Source: Escherichia coli (lineage in GTDB: Bacteria; Pseudomonadota; Gammaproteobacteria; Enterobacterales; Enterobacteriaceae). From it: a stretch of DNA of 64,000 nt. The notes under the pieces were generated by a model. It had not been told where the DNA came from. It did not search any database and worked only from the letters and a program-made list of their open reading frames with translations. Shown here in pieces: positions 29,132 to 51,366 of this stretch. The position numbers and the translations under genes are program-made. Positions within the stretch are counted from its first letter, which is position 1, and each line of letters starts with the position of its first letter. Location: NCBI RefSeq assembly GCF_016903815.1, contig NZ_CP069973.1, one strand, 5' to 3'.

Positions 29132-30484
29132 ATGACTAAACACTATGATTACATCGCCATCGGCGGCGGCAGCGGCGGTATCGCCTCCATCAACCGCGCG
29201 GCTATGTACGGTCAGAAATGCGCGCTGATTGAAGCCAAAGAACTGGGCGGCACCTGCGTGAACGTCGGCTGCGTACCGAAGAAAGTGATGTGGCACGCGG
29301 CGCAAATCCGTGAAGCGATCCACATGTACGGTCCGGATTATGGTTTCGATACCACTATAAATAAATTCAACTGGGAAACGTTGATCGCCAGCCGTACCGC
29401 CTATATCGACCGTATTCATACTTCCTATGAAAACGTGCTCGGTAAAAATAACGTTGATGTAATCAAAGGCTTTGCCCGCTTCGTTGATGCCAAAACGCTG
29501 GAGGTAAACGGCGAAACCATCACGGCCGATCATATTCTGATCGCCACCGGCGGTCGTCCGAGCCACCCGGATATTCCAGGCGTGGAATACGGTATTGATT
29601 CTGATGGCTTCTTCGCCCTTCCTGCTTTGCCAGAGCGCGTGGCGGTTGTTGGCGCGGGTTACATCGCCGTTGAGCTGGCGGGCGTGATTAACGGCCTCGG
29701 CGCGAAAACGCATCTGTTTGTGCGTAAACATGCGCCGCTGCGCAGCTTCGACCCGATGATCTCTGAAACGCTGGTCGAAGTGATGAACGCCGAAGGCCCG
29801 CAGTTGCACACCAACGCCATCCCGAAAGCAGTAGTGAAAAATGCTGATGGTAGCCTGACGCTGGAGCTGGAAGATGGGCGCAGTGAAACGGTGGATTGCC
29901 TGATTTGGGCGATTGGTCGCGAGCCTGCCAATGACAACATCAACCTGGAAGCCGCTGGCGTTAAAACTAACGAAAAAGGCTATATCGTCGTCGATAAATA
30001 TCAAAATACCAACGTTGAAGGTATTTACGCGGTGGGCGATAACACGGGTGCAGTGGAACTGACACCGGTAGCAGTTGCAGCGGGTCGCCGTCTCTCTGAA
30101 CGCCTGTTTAATAACAAGCCGGATGAGCATCTCGATTACAGCAACATTCCGACCGTGGTCTTCAGCCATCCGCCGATTGGGACTGTTGGTTTAACGGAAC
30201 CGCAGGCGCGCGAGCAGTACGGCGACGATCAGGTGAAAGTGTATAAATCCTCTTTCACCGCGATGTATACCGCCGTCACCACTCACCGCCAGCCGTGCCG
30301 CATGAAACTGGTATGCGTTGGACCGGAAGAGAAGATTGTCGGAATTCACGGCATTGGTTTTGGTATGGATGAAATGTTGCAGGGCTTCGCGGTGGCGCTG
30401 AAGATGGGGGCGACCAAAAAAGACTTCGACAATACCGTCGCCATTCACCCGACGGCGGCAGAAGAGTTCGTGACCATGCGTTAA
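29132..30484 (+). CDS. gor: Glutathione reductase
   Basis: 450 aa; FAD-binding GGGSGG and redox-active disulfide motif [13 protein letters not shown]. Confidence 0.95.
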
Positions 30485-30490
30485 ATGTTA

Positions 30491-30521
30491 AAGGGCAAAG
30501 AGTGGTGTGCTCTTTGCCCTT
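30491..30521. terminator. Hairpin between convergent gor and dinQ
   Basis: aagggcaaagag-tggtgtg-ctctttgccctt perfect 12-bp stem; weak U-tract. Confidence 0.4.
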
Positions 30522-30537
30522 AGCTACGTTTCCGCTA

Positions 30538-30621
30538 TCAGTTCAGAAGCTGAAGCAGGAAGCGGATCAGTTCCAGCAGCGCAATTAACGCCCCAAGAAC
30601 GATGATTGCTTTATCAATCAC
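30538..30621 (-). CDS. dinQ: DinQ type I toxin peptide (27 aa, GTG start)
   Basis: Minus-strand translation GTG-IDKAIIVLGALIALLELIRFLLQLLN-TGA. Below the ORF-track length cutoff. Confidence 0.85.
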   Translation of the reverse strand: MIDKAIIVLGALIALLELIRFLLQLLN

Positions 30622-30812
30622 CCGTTTTCTCCATGCTATGGAGTGAGAATGCATCCGCTTACTCATCCACTGCCTGTCACGGCGCATGTCTCATTGTTAG
30701 ATAAGAACTCTCTCACTCCGGCCAGAGCATCAGTTAACGGCACCACCCGTACTTCTGACCAGGACTTTGAAAGCGTTTATGCGCATTACCAGAGTGAAAA
30801 TGCCTCAGAGCT

Positions 30813-30832
30813 AACTGGATAATCATACAGTA
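30813..30832 (-). promoter_or_regulatory. Candidate LexA box (SOS operator) for dinQ
   Basis: aaCTGgataatcataCAGta fits the CTG-N10-CAG palindrome; ~190 bp upstream of the dinQ ORF on its strand. Confidence 0.55.
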
Positions 30833-30895
30833 CATGCAGGTTATAAAACCAGCACGTCCTTGCAATAGTTTCAGTATGGTATTAGCATTGATGCG

Positions 30896-30977
30896 TTAGA
30901 TGATGGCATTCTCACTCCAACCAGAGCCACCAACTCAGGGCTGGAAAGTAAAAAACCGACGCGAAGTCGGTTTTTTT
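30896..30977 (+). ncRNA. agrA: AgrA small RNA (dinQ-related repeat), approximate ends
   Basis: Promoter-like TTGCAA-17-TAGCAT upstream; body ends in terminator aaaaaaccgacg-cgaa-gtcggttttttt. Near-duplicate of the agrB unit. Confidence 0.6.
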
Positions 30978-31129
30978 ACGTCCGGATTCGGACAAGGCTT
31001 GGTACGGCAGCGACCCGATGAAAGTATATAAATCCTCTTTCACCAACATGTATAGCAAACTGTCCCTTCTCCAGCTGAAGAAATCGCTAATTCTTGCAAT
31101 GTTAGCCACTGGCTAATAGTATTGAACTG

Positions 31130-31211
31130 TTAGATAAGAGCTCTCTCACTCCAGCCAGAGCCACCAACTCAGGGCTGGAAAGTAAAAAACCGACGCAAAG
31201 TCGGTTTTTTT
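31130..31211 (+). ncRNA. agrB: AgrB antisense small RNA (repressor of dinQ), approximate ends
   Basis: TTGCAA-17-TAGTAT promoter at 31094..31122. Body is near-identical to the 30694..30727 segment lying antisense within the dinQ transcript region. Terminator at 31185..31211. Confidence 0.65.
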
Positions 31212-31363
31212 ACGTCCTGATTCAGACCTCCTTTCAAATGAATAGCCAACTCAAAATTCACACCTATTACCTTCCTCTGCACATACACATTCGTTAAACC
31301 ATATATGTTTTTGACTTATCCGCTTCGAAGAGAGACACTACCTGCAACAATCAGGAGCGCAAT

Positions 31364-31717
31364 ATGTCATTTCTGTTACCCATCCAACTGTTCAAAATTC
31401 TTGCTGATGAAACCCGTCTGGGCATCGTTTTACTGCTCAGCGAGCTGGGAGAATTATGCGTCTGCGATCTCTGTACTGCCCTCGATCAGTCGCAGCCCAA
31501 GATATCCCGCCACCTGGCATTGCTGCGTGAAAGTGGGCTATTGCTGGATCGCAAGCAGGGTAAGTGGGTTCATTACCGCTTATCACCGCATATTCCATCA
31601 TGGGCCGCGAAAATTATTGAGCAGGCCTGGCGATGCGAACAGGAAAAGGTTCAGGTGATTGTCCGCAACCTGGCTCGACAAAATTGTTCCGAAGACAGTA
31701 AGAACATTTGTAGTTAA
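31364..31717 (+). CDS. arsR: Arsenical resistance operon repressor ArsR
   Basis: 117 aa; metal-binding ELCVCDLC motif in the HTH region. Confidence 0.95.
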   Translation: MSFLLPIQLFKILADETRLGIVLLLSELGELCVCDLCTALDQSQPKISRHLALLRESGLLLDRKQGKWVHYRLSPHIPSWAAKIIEQAWRCEQEKVQVIVRNLARQNCSEDSKNICS

Positions 31718-39462: not shown

Positions 39463-41445
39463 TTACCATTGATAACTCACGAAAATTTTTCCATTACGAC
39501 CATCCTGTGGGATGCCTTGTGGCGACCAGTACTCTTTGTCGAAAGCGTTACCCAACACCAAAGTAGTGGTCATACCTTTGAGCGCCTGTTGTCCTTGATA
39601 ACTGACGTAGAAATCATTCACGCCATAGCCTGGTTGTTTGCTGTAACTGCTGCTGATATGTGTTGAGCGATCGGCAAACGTACCAACCCACCCAACAGAG
39701 AAGCCACTGTGAGCGATCGGAATATTCAGGGTACTGGTAACGGTATCCGGGTTAATGCTGGAGATATATTCCCCAGTATCGGTGTCTTTGCCGCGGGTAC
39801 GGTTATAGGCCACATCAAGGCTAAACAGATCAGTGGTATATTTCGTCATTACATCCCAGCCCCAGATTTTGGCGTTCGGGACGTTATACGACATAGTTGT
39901 CGCCGCCGCGAAATCGACGGTCGTGGAGATGTAATCCTTCGCTTTGGTATCAAAGTAGCTGGCTTTAAATTCCAGGGTATCATTGGACAACATCAGGTCA
40001 TCAAAACGCAGCCCAAAACCGTACTCCTGAGTTTCGTTAGTTTCCGGACGTAAGTTCGGGTTTGGCACCCAATAGTTGGTATAGAAGCGACCAATCGAGA
40101 AGTGCTTAGAATCGTTATACATTTCGCCCATCGTCGGGGCGCGGAATGCCTGGGCATATGAGCCAAATAACATCAGCCAGTTAGTCGGATTGATAGTCAT
40201 CCCCGCACGAGATGACCATTTGTCGGCATCAACATCTTTGTAACCGTCACTGCTACCGCGATAACTGTCATAGCGGGTTCCGCCAAGCAGGGTAATCGGC
40301 AGATCGCGTAAGGTGATCTCATCCTGTAGCCAGCCGGAGCTAAAATCGATTTTTGCTTGCGGGAAGCCCGTCGTCGCGCCGCCCGGATGTTGTTCCTGAC
40401 GATAATACTCACCGCCATATGTCAGTAAGTGAGAAGCGAAACTGTCGGCAAAGAGAGTGGAACGGTTCTCCAGCCTGGCTCCTTTTGTTATCTGTTCACG
40501 ATACTCGCCGGAACTCCCCGTGTTTTGCGCATTAATACGGACTTCCGACCAGTAAATTTTTGCATCTGCATTTAACCAGTCGTTGCCCTGCGGGGCGAGT
40601 TTATAAGAAAGCTGCGCATCGCGTTGAATTGTTGAACGATCAACCATCGGGTTGCTGCTATCAGAAGCCTCAACAGTCTGCGGATTTTTTGGTTCACGCG
40701 CGTCGTTGTTGTAGTAACGCACTAAACCGCTCAGAGACTGGGCTGAATCAATTTGCCAGGTCCCTTTCGCCAGCATGTTATTAATGGACTCGTCATTCGG
40801 CGCGGTTTCACCATTGCTCTGGCGTAAATCACCCCGACCGCGACTGGACCAGGCCACAATACCATCCAGATTTTCAGTTCGCCCAAACGCGCTCGCGCCT
40901 AATCCCAGGCTATGGTCCCCCGTGCCGCCAGTACCAAAGACACGAAAACCACTGCTTTGTCCTTCCTGCAATAAATCTTTTGCATCGACCGTATCGTAGG
41001 AGATCACTCCACCCAGCGCACCACTGCCATACAGTAATGCTGAAGGTCCGCGAACAATCTCAACACGCTTGATCAGCGCCGGATCGAGAAAAGTGCCATT
41101 CAGGTGTCCGGTATCCGTTCCCTGGCGAACACCATCGACAAGAACCAGCACGCCGCGATGATCATAGCCACGCATATTTACATCCTGACCGTTGGTTCGT
41201 CCGGTACCATCAAGAGTAATTCCAGGAACATGACGCAGCAAATCAGTGGCTGAAGTAGCCGTTTGATTTTCAGGAGCGGAAGTGTCGATGACGCTGACCA
41301 TCATAGGCGCTTCGAAGGAACTACGGGCATTCCCCGTTGCCGTAACGGTCATGGTTTCAGTAGCAAAAGCAAACGTTGGCAAGGTGGCAGAAACAGCCAA
41401 AGCCAACAAACTCAAACGCAACGAGGTAAATTGCGGACGTGACAT
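39463..41445 (-). CDS. chuA: TonB-dependent outer membrane haem/haemoglobin receptor ChuA
   Basis: 660 aa; signal peptide, TonB-box-like ETMTVTA, plug and beta-barrel, C-terminal ...VSYQW. Confidence 0.95.
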   Translation of the reverse strand: MSRPQFTSLRLSLLALAVSATLPTFAFATETMTVTATGNARSSFEAPMMVSVIDTSAPENQTATSATDLLRHVPGITLDGTGRTNGQDVNMRGYDHRGVLVLVDGVRQGTDTGHLNGTFLDPALIKRVEIVRGPSALLYGSGALGGVISYDTVDAKDLLQEGQSSGFRVFGTGGTGDHSLGLGASAFGRTENLDGIVAWSSRGRGDLRQSNGETAPNDESINNMLAKGTWQIDSAQSLSGLVRYYNNDAREPKNPQTVEASDSSNPMVDRSTIQRDAQLSYKLAPQGNDWLNADAKIYWSEVRINAQNTGSSGEYREQITKGARLENRSTLFADSFASHLLTYGGEYYRQEQHPGGATTGFPQAKIDFSSGWLQDEITLRDLPITLLGGTRYDSYRGSSDGYKDVDADKWSSRAGMTINPTNWLMLFGSYAQAFRAPTMGEMYNDSKHFSIGRFYTNYWVPNPNLRPETNETQEYGFGLRFDDLMLSNDTLEFKASYFDTKAKDYISTTVDFAAATTMSYNVPNAKIWGWDVMTKYTTDLFSLDVAYNRTRGKDTDTGEYISSINPDTVTSTLNIPIAHSGFSVGWVGTFADRSTHISSSYSKQPGYGVNDFYVSYQGQQALKGMTTTLVLGNAFDKEYWSPQGIPQDGRNGKIFVSYQW

Positions 41446-41450
41446 AGCGA

Positions 41451-41466
41451 TTCTCCATGAGGAAAA
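41451..41466 (-). promoter_or_regulatory. Candidate FourU-type RNA thermometer hairpin masking the chuA Shine-Dalgarno
   Basis: Minus-strand RNA reads UUUUCC-UCAU-GGAGAA immediately 5' of the chuA AUG; UUUUCC can pair with GGAGAA. Confidence 0.4.
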
Positions 41467-41734
41467 TAAAAAATGCTGGCTGCCTGGGTTAATACCGGGG
41501 TGGCTGGCGAAAAATAAATTTATTTAAAATTCAGAGCGATAATATTCGCCGGGTGAGTTTACAGGCGTTTATATCCCATGAAATTGCCTGGTATCTCGGC
41601 AAATACGCAAAAGCACGCCCTCTTTGTCAGGCAAAACGATATGCCCCATCAGGAGTGAAGAGCGCTGTGCGTTATCCCTTGCAAATGCTATGGTTTTGTT
41701 ATCCATATGGTCGTGTTTTGTTAAGCGCGAACGT

Positions 41735-51028: not shown

Positions 51029-51366
51029 TCAGGACATAAGCAACTGAAATTGATGGCTGGCATGACGAGGGATGCAGATGCTGATTTCATTACCCCCGGT
51101 GATTACTAAAGGAGAGGCGAAAACGACTTTATTCCCCTGGTATATGTATCCACCAGTAGAACCCTTCGTTGCCCGAATGCTGGCAGGAACTGTTGGCAGA
51201 ACGGCAACATTTTTTTTGTCGTTGACCTCACCATGTCGATCACTATGCCTGTATCCCACCTTACTGGCTGACAACCCCACTATGCCGCTGGTCTGTAAAT
51301 CCCTCATATCTCTCCTCGCGCGCAATTTAAAGAACCGTTATTTCTCAAGAATTTTCAGGGACTAAA

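Follow-up and report, generated by a model that had tools for sequence, protein, structure and literature searches.

The window analysed here, a 64-kb stretch of Escherichia coli DNA, carries gor (glutathione reductase; 29132–30484, + strand), a 450-aa ORF annotated as gorA in a genome that is 100% identical here, and arsR (31364–31717, + strand), an ORF likewise annotated in a 100%-identical genome. Between them lie an ORF for the small peptide DinQ on the − strand and two sRNA genes, agrA and agrB, on the + strand. The gor–arsR interval is almost certainly the published chromosomal dinQ-agrAB type I toxin–antitoxin locus of E. coli (Weel-Sneve 2013, PMC3567139; Kristiansen 2016, PMC5066626); dinQ, agrA and agrB are already known and well studied, as a textbook SOS-regulated system. 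E. coli chromosomes on which RefSeq places dinQ between gorA and arsR match it at 100% identity, and the K-12 interval aligns with it and has agrA and agrB annotated at homologous positions. The first-pass annotation, which had recognized a dinQ type I toxin locus with agrA and agrB from the DNA letters, agrees with RefSeq, the K-12 annotation, Rfam RF02891 and NCBIfam NF041472, and no sequence feature in the locus contradicts this identity. The sequence elements, curated-family matches and predicted pairings described below are established in the present analysis; LexA control, transcript ends, processing, toxicity and AgrB-specific repression are taken to hold here by analogy with experiments in K-12.

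The toxin ORF (ORF V; 30538–30621, − strand) reads GTG ATT GAT AAA ... TGA and encodes (M)IDKAIIVLGALIALLELIRFLLQLLN, a 27-aa peptide with a GTG start, as had been proposed for this position between gor and arsR, and with a single transmembrane segment. The peptide scores 54 bits against the equivalog model NF041472 (toxin_DinQ; cutoff 30) and has the small, hydrophobic, single-transmembrane form of about 27 aa that characterizes toxins of the DinQ/AgrB family. Two synonymous differences are all that separate the ORF from that of K-12, and the encoded protein is identical. DinQ is invariant across the sample: all sampled RefSeq genomes but K-12 have it annotated as WP_001295215.1, K-12 has the same sequence under a separate accession, and E. 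albertii encodes the same peptide. Type I toxin–antitoxin behaviour has been shown in K-12, where a stop codon at K4 suppresses the UV sensitivity of a ΔagrB strain (PMC3567139, PMC5066626).

Given the near-identity to K-12 and the numbering of PMC5066626, the full-length (+1) dinQ transcript would occupy 30485–30815 on the − strand, about 331 nt, with +1 placed at 30815 by counting back from the Shine–Dalgarno (SD) nucleotides G184–G187. Processing of the mRNA to its translatable form leaves a 5′ end that was mapped in K-12 to +44 (PMC3567139) and that transfers by the same numbering to a probable position at 30772. At the other end, a perfect 12-bp inverted repeat between the convergent gor and dinQ genes (30491–30521) forms a hairpin that is the likely dinQ terminator on the − strand, where the RNA has a predicted fold of −20.9 kcal/mol (z = −4.7). 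This hairpin lies just left of 30538, outside the interval first annotated; the dinQ terminator has been placed just downstream of the gor stop codon (PMC3567139).

A putative LexA operator overlaps the dinQ start. The bare CTG-N10-CAG site, CTGGATAATCATACAG at 30815–30830, is not significant in itself, with 26 occurrences in the 64-kb window against about 14 expected from composition. The 20-mer that contains it, AACTGGATAATCATACAGTA (30813–30832; TACTGTATGATTATCCAGTT when read on the − strand), is the top LexA consensus match (15/20), both among these 26 sites and among all 20-mers of the window, and does not differ from the K-12 operator, which bears out the LexA-box-like operator suggested earlier upstream of dinQ. 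The 20-mer spans −17 to +3 and covers both the dinQ −10 element (TATGAT, 30822–30827) and +1, the overlap of operator and promoter that, judged by sequence, would place dinQ in the SOS regulon. For K-12, the operator has a reported HI of 4.83, a second, weak operator has been reported for dinQ with an HI of 13.82, and UV induction of dinQ was seen by Northern blot (PMC3567139).

Downstream of +1, the dinQ 5′ UTR carries the four elements of the published translational switch (PMC5066626), all with their published sequences apart from C28U in element 1, where U28 in place of the K-12 C28 yields a G·U pair. Element 1 (UUUUCACUCUGGU, 30788–30800) is predicted from sequence and fold to lock element 2 (GCCGGAGUGAGAG, 30710–30722) in the +1 transcript. 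Element 2 sits inside the predicted AgrB-binding site, G88–A119 (30697–30728), which is the dinQ-internal repeat copy and is placed by repeats, pairing and PMC5066626. Element 3, the anti-SD UUCUCACUCCAU (30638–30649), is supported by an inverted repeat of 14 nt (30639–30652) that is 100% complementary to the agrA copy, making it a fourth, inverted and partial copy of the repeat core. Element 4 (AUGGAG, 30629–30634) includes the SD GGAG, 7 nt upstream of the GUG (sequence; PMC5066626). Predicted duplex energies are −18.3 kcal/mol for 1:2, −16.9 for 2:3 and −6.9 for 3:4. The 1:2 duplex is complete, with 13 of 13 pairs, in the predicted minimum free energy (MFE) fold of the +1 RNA, and blocking the AgrB site lets the +44 RNA, in prediction, fold into the 3:4 SD hairpin. 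When the +1 and +44 RNAs are folded without constraint, their MFE structures do not reproduce the 3:4 and 2:3 pairings that were published; element 3 pairs there with nucleotides 146–154, so the in silico support for the switch is partial.

On the opposite strand, agrA (30896–30979) and agrB (31130–31213) give full-length matches to the AgrB family RF02891, as two 84-nt sRNAs scoring 99.7 and 108.1 bits, respectively (gathering score 40). They lie 81 and 315 nt upstream of the dinQ +1, divergent from it and non-overlapping, and begin at the same positions as the K-12 ncRNA annotations; the agrA start was determined by primer extension in K-12 (PMC3567139). That each gene has its own promoter and terminator, as first proposed, is supported by TTGCAA, a 17-nt spacer and TAGCAT at 30860–30888 for agrA, with +1 7 nt downstream, and by TTGCAA, a 17-nt spacer and TAGTAT at 31094–31122 for agrB, both matching the consensus at 8/12, and by an 11-bp terminator hairpin followed by a U-run in each. 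Each RNA thus has the organization of an AgrB-type sRNA: a 5′ antisense tail, a stem-loop and a rho-independent terminator. The first 31–32 nt of agrB are antisense to the dinQ 5′ UTR, and its fold has z = −4.95. Stem-loop 1 is weakened in agrA (−22.9 kcal/mol against −30.1 in agrB) by a strain-specific G to A change. A consensus promoter and terminator scan (promoter threshold 9/12) recovered none of the three promoters and three terminators of the locus; the promoters were missed because they match at 8/12, and the agr terminators because A/U pairs lengthen their stems until no T-run remains beyond them. The sole + strand ‘promoter’ that the scan did return, at 30794–30823, is no more than chance would give (1 found, 1.3 expected). 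Weak Rfam matches to AgrB on the − strand, Spy779816 and ncr952 (E = 0.2–1) were likewise set aside as terminator-driven chance.

The agr genes and the dinQ 5′ UTR share a repeat that is confined to this locus. The pattern TTAGAT-N8-TCTCACTCC-NN-CCAGAG has exactly three matches in the window, at 30697, 30896 and 31130, with 0.00 expected, and the core TCTCACTCC occurs 4 times in the 64 kb, always within the dinQ-agrAB locus, with 0.19 expected. The element of about 35 nt that had been noted three times here is therefore found, as a 31-nt repeat. Its copies had been described as one in dinQ and two on the opposite strand, which holds for the direction of transcription only, all three being direct repeats on the + strand. 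Aligned over 31 nt, the 30896 copy is identical to the dinQ copy at 23 positions and the 31130 copy at 29, the latter being the closer match as first reported; a repeat search, treating the family as 34 nt long, gives identities of 74% and 94%.

Together with the published work, these elements suggest the following mechanism. LexA bound to the operator over the dinQ −10 and +1 would keep transcription low until DNA damage. The primary 331-nt mRNA would be inert, with element 1 pairing with element 2 while element 3 (UUCUCACUCCAU) sequesters the SD in element 4. Loss of the first 43 nt would free element 2 to capture element 3, opening the SD for synthesis of the 27-aa DinQ, which would enter the inner membrane, cause depolarisation and lower ATP. 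AgrB, presumably a constitutive 84-nt RNA encoded about 400 bp off on the opposite strand, also has ‘UCUCACUCC’ in its 5′ tail; by pairing with some 32 nt of the dinQ 5′ UTR, including element 2, it would both let the SD hairpin re-form and create an RNase III substrate.

This assignment of AgrB as the repressor, already suggested by the first-pass annotation, holds for the window strain by predicted pairing and agrees with experiments in K-12, where AgrB alone blocks +44 dinQ translation and DinQ toxicity, ΔagrB is UV-sensitive and AgrB directs RNase III cleavage (PMC3567139, PMC5066626). Over 31 nt, agrB and dinQ mRNA form 29 Watson–Crick pairs, 1 G·U pair and 1 A·C mismatch (predicted −58 kcal/mol), the extended complementarity of about 31–34 nt between sRNA and toxin 5′ UTR that is typical of the DinQ/AgrB family. 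The corresponding agrA duplex has 23 Watson–Crick pairs, 4 G·U pairs and 4 mismatches (−41 kcal/mol), its mismatches and G·U pairs clustering in a variable decamer. AgrA pairs poorly with this dinQ allele and would therefore be at most a weak modulator here. That both RNAs are working antitoxins in this strain, redundant or additive, is unlikely, even though agrA retains its promoter, full Rfam match (99.7 bits) and terminator, deletion of agrA in K-12 raised full-length dinQ RNA 3-fold (PMC3567139), and the copy at the agrA position is the better dinQ match in many other E. coli. Besides the poorer pairing and the weakened first stem-loop, AgrA was without effect on SHAPE reactivity, +44 translation or toxicity in K-12 (PMC5066626), where agrA is slightly better matched to dinQ than in the window (24 Watson–Crick pairs of 31 against 23; 25/31 complementary as counted in PMC3567139).

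It is far less probable that the repeats are inert remnants of local duplication with no regulatory role, such as debris left when a tandem duplication took in part of gor, and the hydrophobic ORF a product of chance. A gor pseudo-fragment between the agr copies does show that duplication or insertion shaped the region, and the loss of both promoters in about 15% of E. coli genomes implies that the locus is dispensable. Such a reading would leave unexplained a DinQ peptide that is invariant in the sampled genomes, K-12 and E. albertii, a dinQ target and one agr copy that change together across strains, and the matches to curated family models (RF02891, NF041472); for K-12, it is already refuted by direct genetics and biochemistry (PMC3567139, PMC5066626). 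The translated product, too, could be read differently: a longer, ATG-initiated ORF of 49 aa (30538–30687) is open in the window strain, and longer forms of DinQ are also toxic when expressed from constructs (PMC3567139). We consider translation of this ORF instead of the 27-aa peptide very improbable, since GGAG lies 7 nt upstream of the 27-aa GTG, in vitro translation of the +44 RNA gives a product that matches peptide V in size, the ΔagrB phenotype disappears when the chromosomal ORF V carries a K4-stop (PMC3567139), and it is the 27-aa form that NCBIfam and RefSeq model.

The closest named system is dinQ-agrAB of K-12 MG1655 (b4613, b4712, b4713), which has the same position between gor and arsR, an identical DinQ and an identical LexA operator. 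The two loci share elements 2–4 of the dinQ 5′ UTR and two agr genes, of which agrB is the better match in both; the agrA promoter hexamers, spacer and leader, the agrB −35 and −10 hexamers and spacer, and the sRNA starts are also identical. Nucleotide divergence is about 3–5% (97% mean column identity in alignment A1; 94.9% identity by megablast), concentrated in the agrA–agrB spacer; the agrA terminator loop has a single substitution, as does the stretch between the agrB −10 and its +1. Within the antisense segment, agrA differs from K-12 at 4 positions, whereas agrB has one extra A to G change that places a G·U pair where K-12 has A-U, giving 29 Watson–Crick pairs and 1 G·U with dinQ in the window and 30 Watson–Crick pairs in K-12.

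As with dinQ, the toxin mRNA of tisB/istR-1 is LexA-repressed and inert until about 42–44 nt are removed from its 5′ end, an antisense RNA that is transcribed divergently and does not overlap the mRNA binds a long way upstream of the SD, leading to RNase III cleavage, and the toxin is a small inner-membrane peptide (PMC3567139, PMC5066626). The likeness drawn is one of architecture. Among the differences, tisB uses a ribosome standby site, as opposed to the four-element anti-SD switch of dinQ (PMC5066626), and has a single functional antitoxin where the dinQ locus has a pair of paralogues. The dql (dinQ-like) loci, including agrB-dqlB of IncX3 plasmids, share the peptide family, the 5′ UTR architecture and an AgrB-like antisense RNA (PMC5066626, PMC12317039), but are paralogues located elsewhere on chromosomes and plasmids, whereas the window holds the orthologous chromosomal dinQ. 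A role in plasmid stabilisation has been shown for agrB-dqlB of IncX3, in which agrA was not found (PMC12317039). Matches to the window dinQ locus on plasmids number 46.

Across E. coli lineages, the dinQ target and the two agr paralogues vary together. The window and K-12 have a ‘B-type’ dinQ target (AAGAACTCTC), for which AgrB is cognate. O104:H4, O157:H7, AR_0077, GF131 and others carry an ‘A-type’ (AATGGCATTC) or ‘C-type’ (GACGACTATC) target, and in these strains it is the dinQ-proximal agrA copy that matches the target nearly perfectly. Counted per identity band in 5426 complete genomes, the 74-nt A-type target is exact in 1802 genomes, with 431 more at 95–99% identity, and the 74-nt B-type target in 1671, with 10 more at 95–99%; the exact A-type target is at least as common as the exact B-type. 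Beyond these band counts, 18 loci were sampled. In a comparison of 10 distinct Escherichia haplotypes, 96.8% of cells stay paired with the dinQ target for whichever agr copy pairs better, and of its 31 pairs 8 have changes on both sides, a number reached in 0 of 500 shuffles, the test favouring pairing in that it took the better of two copies per genome; the other copy keeps 86.2% of cells paired and has 1 pair changed on both sides. Since gene conversion can also move sequence between the repeats, these double changes are not necessarily independent mutations. We tentatively suggest, at somewhat less than even likelihood, that agrA, agrB and the dinQ 5′ UTR copy are a family of three repeats between which a variable 10-nt ‘specificity’ segment is exchanged, such that the cognate agr is lineage-dependent and AgrA is not the degenerate, non-functional duplicate that K-12 suggests. 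No mention of a lineage-dependent cognate copy was found in the literature searched; the pattern may be implicit in T1TAdb, which picks the more stable of the two antisense RNAs per genome. In E. albertii and Escherichia sp. E1V33, the agrA-position copy is the only one and is cognate, so this position may be the ancestral one, with agrB added later. A strict agr pattern, which detects Escherichia-type agr genes and to which distant dql loci are out of reach, found 7 loci in genome contigs, 3 of them on contigs with non-Escherichia labels that are probably contamination.

The agrA–agrB spacer holds a decayed copy of gor codons ~362–379 (gor′; 31002–31054, + strand), identical to gor 30217–30269 at 44 of 53 positions, with a core of 25/26 (E = 5e-7). 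The fragment is also found in K-12, where it is less well preserved than in the window, and in E. albertii, as two pieces. It may stem from a cassette that was inserted with a replacement gor 3′ end, or from a tandem duplication that later decayed. A repeat pair at 30535–30555 and 31060–31080 (71%) is at best a weak candidate for a dinQ′ remnant following gor′, the similarity being too slight; a genuine remnant would support tandem duplication of gor3′-dinQ-agr. In E. albertii, a BLAST search of the sequence downstream of agr gave nothing resembling dinQ.

In about 15% of E. coli genomes, a repeat-mediated deletion removes both promoters. All three promoters of the locus have apparently been lost from a sizeable share of strains, among them Nissle 1917 and ATCC 25922, and RefSeq still annotates dinQ in them. 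The allele swap, the promoter-loss deletion and the gor 3′ fragment may be new observations. Because the dinQ target and the agr paralogues change together across lineages, the conclusion drawn from K-12, of AgrB as the antitoxin and AgrA as dead, may not carry over to A-type strains, including EHEC O157 and O104:H4.

The dinQ-agrAB locus of the window, between gor and arsR, is an already known feature. Many complete E. coli chromosomes, that of strain 7/2 among them, carry the 1 kb at 30400–31400 with 100% identity, and 5422 of the 5426 complete genomes of E. coli contain a match to it. The 100%-identical records are annotated in the order gorA, dinQ (‘damage-inducible type I toxin DinQ’) and arsR-arsB-arsC, and the K-12 MG1655 interval additionally carries the ncRNA genes agrA (b4712) and agrB (b4713). 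Mean column identity between the window and the K-12 interval is 97% in our alignment (A1), and 94.9% by megablast. At the sequence level, the matches to toxin and sRNA models, the complementarity of the antisense RNAs, the position in the genome and the LexA operator all place the locus in the DinQ/AgrB family. The observation made in the first-pass annotation is confirmed and its interpretation supported, with toxicity, SOS induction and antitoxin activity expected here by analogy with the K-12 work. Among non-relatives, the closest analogue is tisB/istR-1; the dql loci, one of which is the IncX3-plasmid module agrB-dqlB (PMC12317039), are related paralogues.

Starting from the toxin gene, the DinQ reading frame (30538–30621, − strand) opens with a GTG that has a GGAG 7 nt upstream, and encodes the 27-aa peptide (M)IDKAIIVLGALIALLELIRFLLQLLN. 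The peptide matches NCBIfam NF041472 ‘toxin_DinQ’ at 54 bits (cutoff 30). The proposed frame is real, and two synonymous substitutions are all that separate the gene from its K-12 counterpart. A bare CTG-N10-CAG motif has little meaning by itself (26 in the window versus approximately 14 expected). The one at 30815–30830 lies within the 20-mer AACTGGATAATCATACAGTA (30813–30832), which is the best match to the LexA consensus in the window (15/20) and is identical to the K-12 operator, with a published heterology index of 4.83 (PMC3567139), bearing out the LexA-box-like site suggested earlier. Counting back from the Shine–Dalgarno (SD) sequence, G184–G187 in the numbering of PMC5066626, would put the dinQ +1 at 30815; the operator would therefore span −17 to +3 and cover the −10 hexamer TATGAT (30822–30827, − strand), which is read directly from the sequence. 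Just left of the interval first annotated, at 30491–30521, a perfect 12-bp hairpin forms the dinQ terminator.

The pattern TTAGAT-N8-TCTCACTCC-NN-CCAGAG has three exact matches in the 64 kb (30697, 30896 and 31130), with none expected, and a repeat search of the window returned the same 34-nt family. The first-pass annotation was right about three copies with one in dinQ, but not about two lying on the opposite strand: all three share one orientation, on the + strand, and it is agrA and agrB that are oppositely transcribed. As dinQ is read from the − strand, its mRNA holds the complement of the repeat, and agrA and agrB, read from the + strand, are antisense to it. Once the three copies are aligned, the 31130 copy is indeed the closer to the dinQ copy, with 29/31 identities versus 23/31 for the 30896 copy. 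The predicted AgrB–dinQ duplex has 29 Watson–Crick pairs, one G·U pair and one A·C mismatch (approximately −58 kcal/mol), and the AgrA–dinQ duplex has 23 Watson–Crick pairs, four G·U pairs and four mismatches (approximately −41 kcal/mol). The window has four occurrences of the core TCTCACTCC, every one in this locus, against 0.19 expected. The fourth copy, partial and inverted within the dinQ mRNA (inverted repeat I2, 30638–30649), had been overlooked; it is ‘element 3’, the anti-SD sequence of the published RNA switch, and ‘element 1’ (30788–30800) is a degenerate fifth relative.

Both sRNA genes match Rfam RF02891 (AgrB) end to end on the + strand, agrB (31130–31213) at 108.1 bits and agrA (30896–30979) at 99.7 bits (gathering score 40), and the whole-window Rfam scan gave no further AgrB match. 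The predicted structure of each RNA is a stem-loop, then an 11-bp hairpin terminator and a U-run, with a folding energy of −30.1 kcal/mol for agrB (z = −4.95) and −22.9 kcal/mol for agrA (z = −2.27). The lower stability of agrA comes from a G to A change peculiar to this strain, by which a pair of the first stem is lost: at 30920–30921 it has CUCCAACC in place of the CUCCAGCC of most strains, and Rfam flags the lost stem-loop 1 pair. Upstream of each gene, TTGCAA and TAGCAT or TAGTAT, separated by a 17-nt spacer, end 7 nt before the mapped start, in agreement with the claim that each has its own promoter and terminator. A simple promoter scan missed these promoters because they score 8/12, under its threshold of 9/12; it missed the terminators of the locus as well. 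Elsewhere in the window, Rfam matched the sRNAs GadY (56997–57110, + strand, 150 bits) and ES205 (51146–51217, + strand, 105 bits) and the shuA/chuA 5′ UTR thermoregulator (41443–41474, − strand, 60.1 bits, gathering score 58), which implies that the strain carries the chu haem-uptake locus.

The mechanism was established in K-12 and is transferred here from the published accounts (PMC3567139, PMC5066626). LexA would repress dinQ (PMC3567139), and the 331-nt primary transcript would be translationally inert (PMC3567139, PMC5066626), with element 1 (U16–C28) pairing with element 2 (G94–G106) and element 3 (U167–U178) sequestering the SD (element 4). Loss of 43 nt would yield the processed +44 RNA, where pairing of element 2 with element 3 leaves the SD open. 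AgrB would bind G88–A119, including element 2, so that the 3:4 hairpin re-forms, and the duplex would be an RNase III substrate. DinQ made from the open RNA would locate to the inner membrane and depolarise it, with a fall in ATP (PMC3567139, PMC5066626). K-12 AgrA has none of the activities of AgrB in vitro and does not protect cells (PMC3567139, PMC5066626). All four elements are present in the window, where the sole change, C28 to U, keeps a G·U pair. The fold of the full-length +1 RNA contains the 1:2 duplex complete with its 13 pairs, and the +44 RNA forms the 3:4 SD hairpin once its AgrB site is blocked. In unconstrained minimum free energy folds of the window RNAs, 3:4 is absent from the +1 RNA and 2:3 from the +44 RNA, and the in silico support for the four-element switch is therefore partial.

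The spacer between agrA and agrB holds a decayed piece of gor (31002–31054), identical at 44/53 positions to gor 30217–30269 (codons ~362–379), with a core of 25/26 (E = 5e-7). A spurious ORF at 31018–31116 arises from this fragment and echoes a stretch of the Gor protein. K-12 has the fragment in a more decayed state, and E. albertii has, past its single agr, two gor-like pieces matching 30216–30234 and the gor 3′ end at 30455–30484 (E = 1.5e-5). Displaced duplication of the final ~270 nt of gor therefore predates the E. coli/E. albertii split, which suggests that the dinQ-agr module was either inserted with a replacement gor 3′ end or duplicated in tandem together with it.

The locus is polymorphic among complete E. 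coli genomes. An agrB unit is present in 3841/5426; O111:H8 and RIVM_C029670 have a single agr, in the agrA position, and so do E. albertii and Escherichia sp. E1V33, where it is cognate to their own target. A deletion that joins the repeat copy inside dinQ to one in an agr gene, the product of recombination between these repeats, is found in 841/5426 genomes, including Nissle 1917 and ATCC 25922. Lost with it are the promoters of dinQ and of the agr gene, the LexA box and the 5′ UTR up to nt ~88, and the RefSeq dinQ annotation persists in these genomes. In ATCC 25922 (junction at 513–597 of sampled locus L005), arsR and arsB are absent too. In a species-representative genome collection, E. 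coli-type dinQ/agr also appears on short contigs assigned to unrelated taxa, namely a 424-bp contig labelled Acinetobacter haemolyticus (L017) and metagenome bins (L018 and L020), one labelled Lachnospiraceae; contamination or mis-binning most likely accounts for all three.

The variable decamer of the dinQ target (30697–30728, − strand) has at least four forms: the ‘B-type’ AAGAACTCTC of the window and K-12, the ‘A-type’ AATGGCATTC, and third and fourth forms, GACGACTATC and GTGGGCATTC. Exact 74-nt target segments are B-type in 1671 genomes and A-type in 1802, with 431 more A-type at 95–99% identity, making the A-type at least as common among complete E. coli genomes. All 18 sampled loci that retain the target have one agr copy with 28–30 Watson–Crick pairs of 31 (counts tabulated for 14 of the 18), and in the 13 with two copies the second reaches only 23–27 of 31. 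The repeats compared were window 30697–30727 against 30896–30926 and 31130–31160, and those of loci L003–L015, L016, L019, L021 and L022. The arsR-proximal agrB provides the good match in the window, K-12, 6EVA, 2021CK-01784 and FXCREC043, and the dinQ-proximal gene, in the agrA position, does so in O104:H4, O157:H7, Ec1117, 1943, WP8-S17, GF131, AR_0077 and E69. The published account regards agrA as a degenerate duplicate (PMC3567139), and we found no report in the literature searched of a lineage-dependent switch of the cognate copy.

Across 10 distinct haplotypes, the better agr copy has 96.8% of cells paired and 8/31 pairs changed on both sides, a result reached by 0/500 shuffles; the other copy has 86.2% paired and one both-sides change. 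The A·C mismatch at repeat position 24 (30720 in the dinQ copy, 31153 in agrB) is conserved in 8/10 haplotypes, and stays even where the remaining duplex has co-varied. Gene conversion among the repeats could yield the double-change pattern without independent compensatory mutations. The covariation test picks the better copy in each genome, a choice that by itself biases the result towards pairing.
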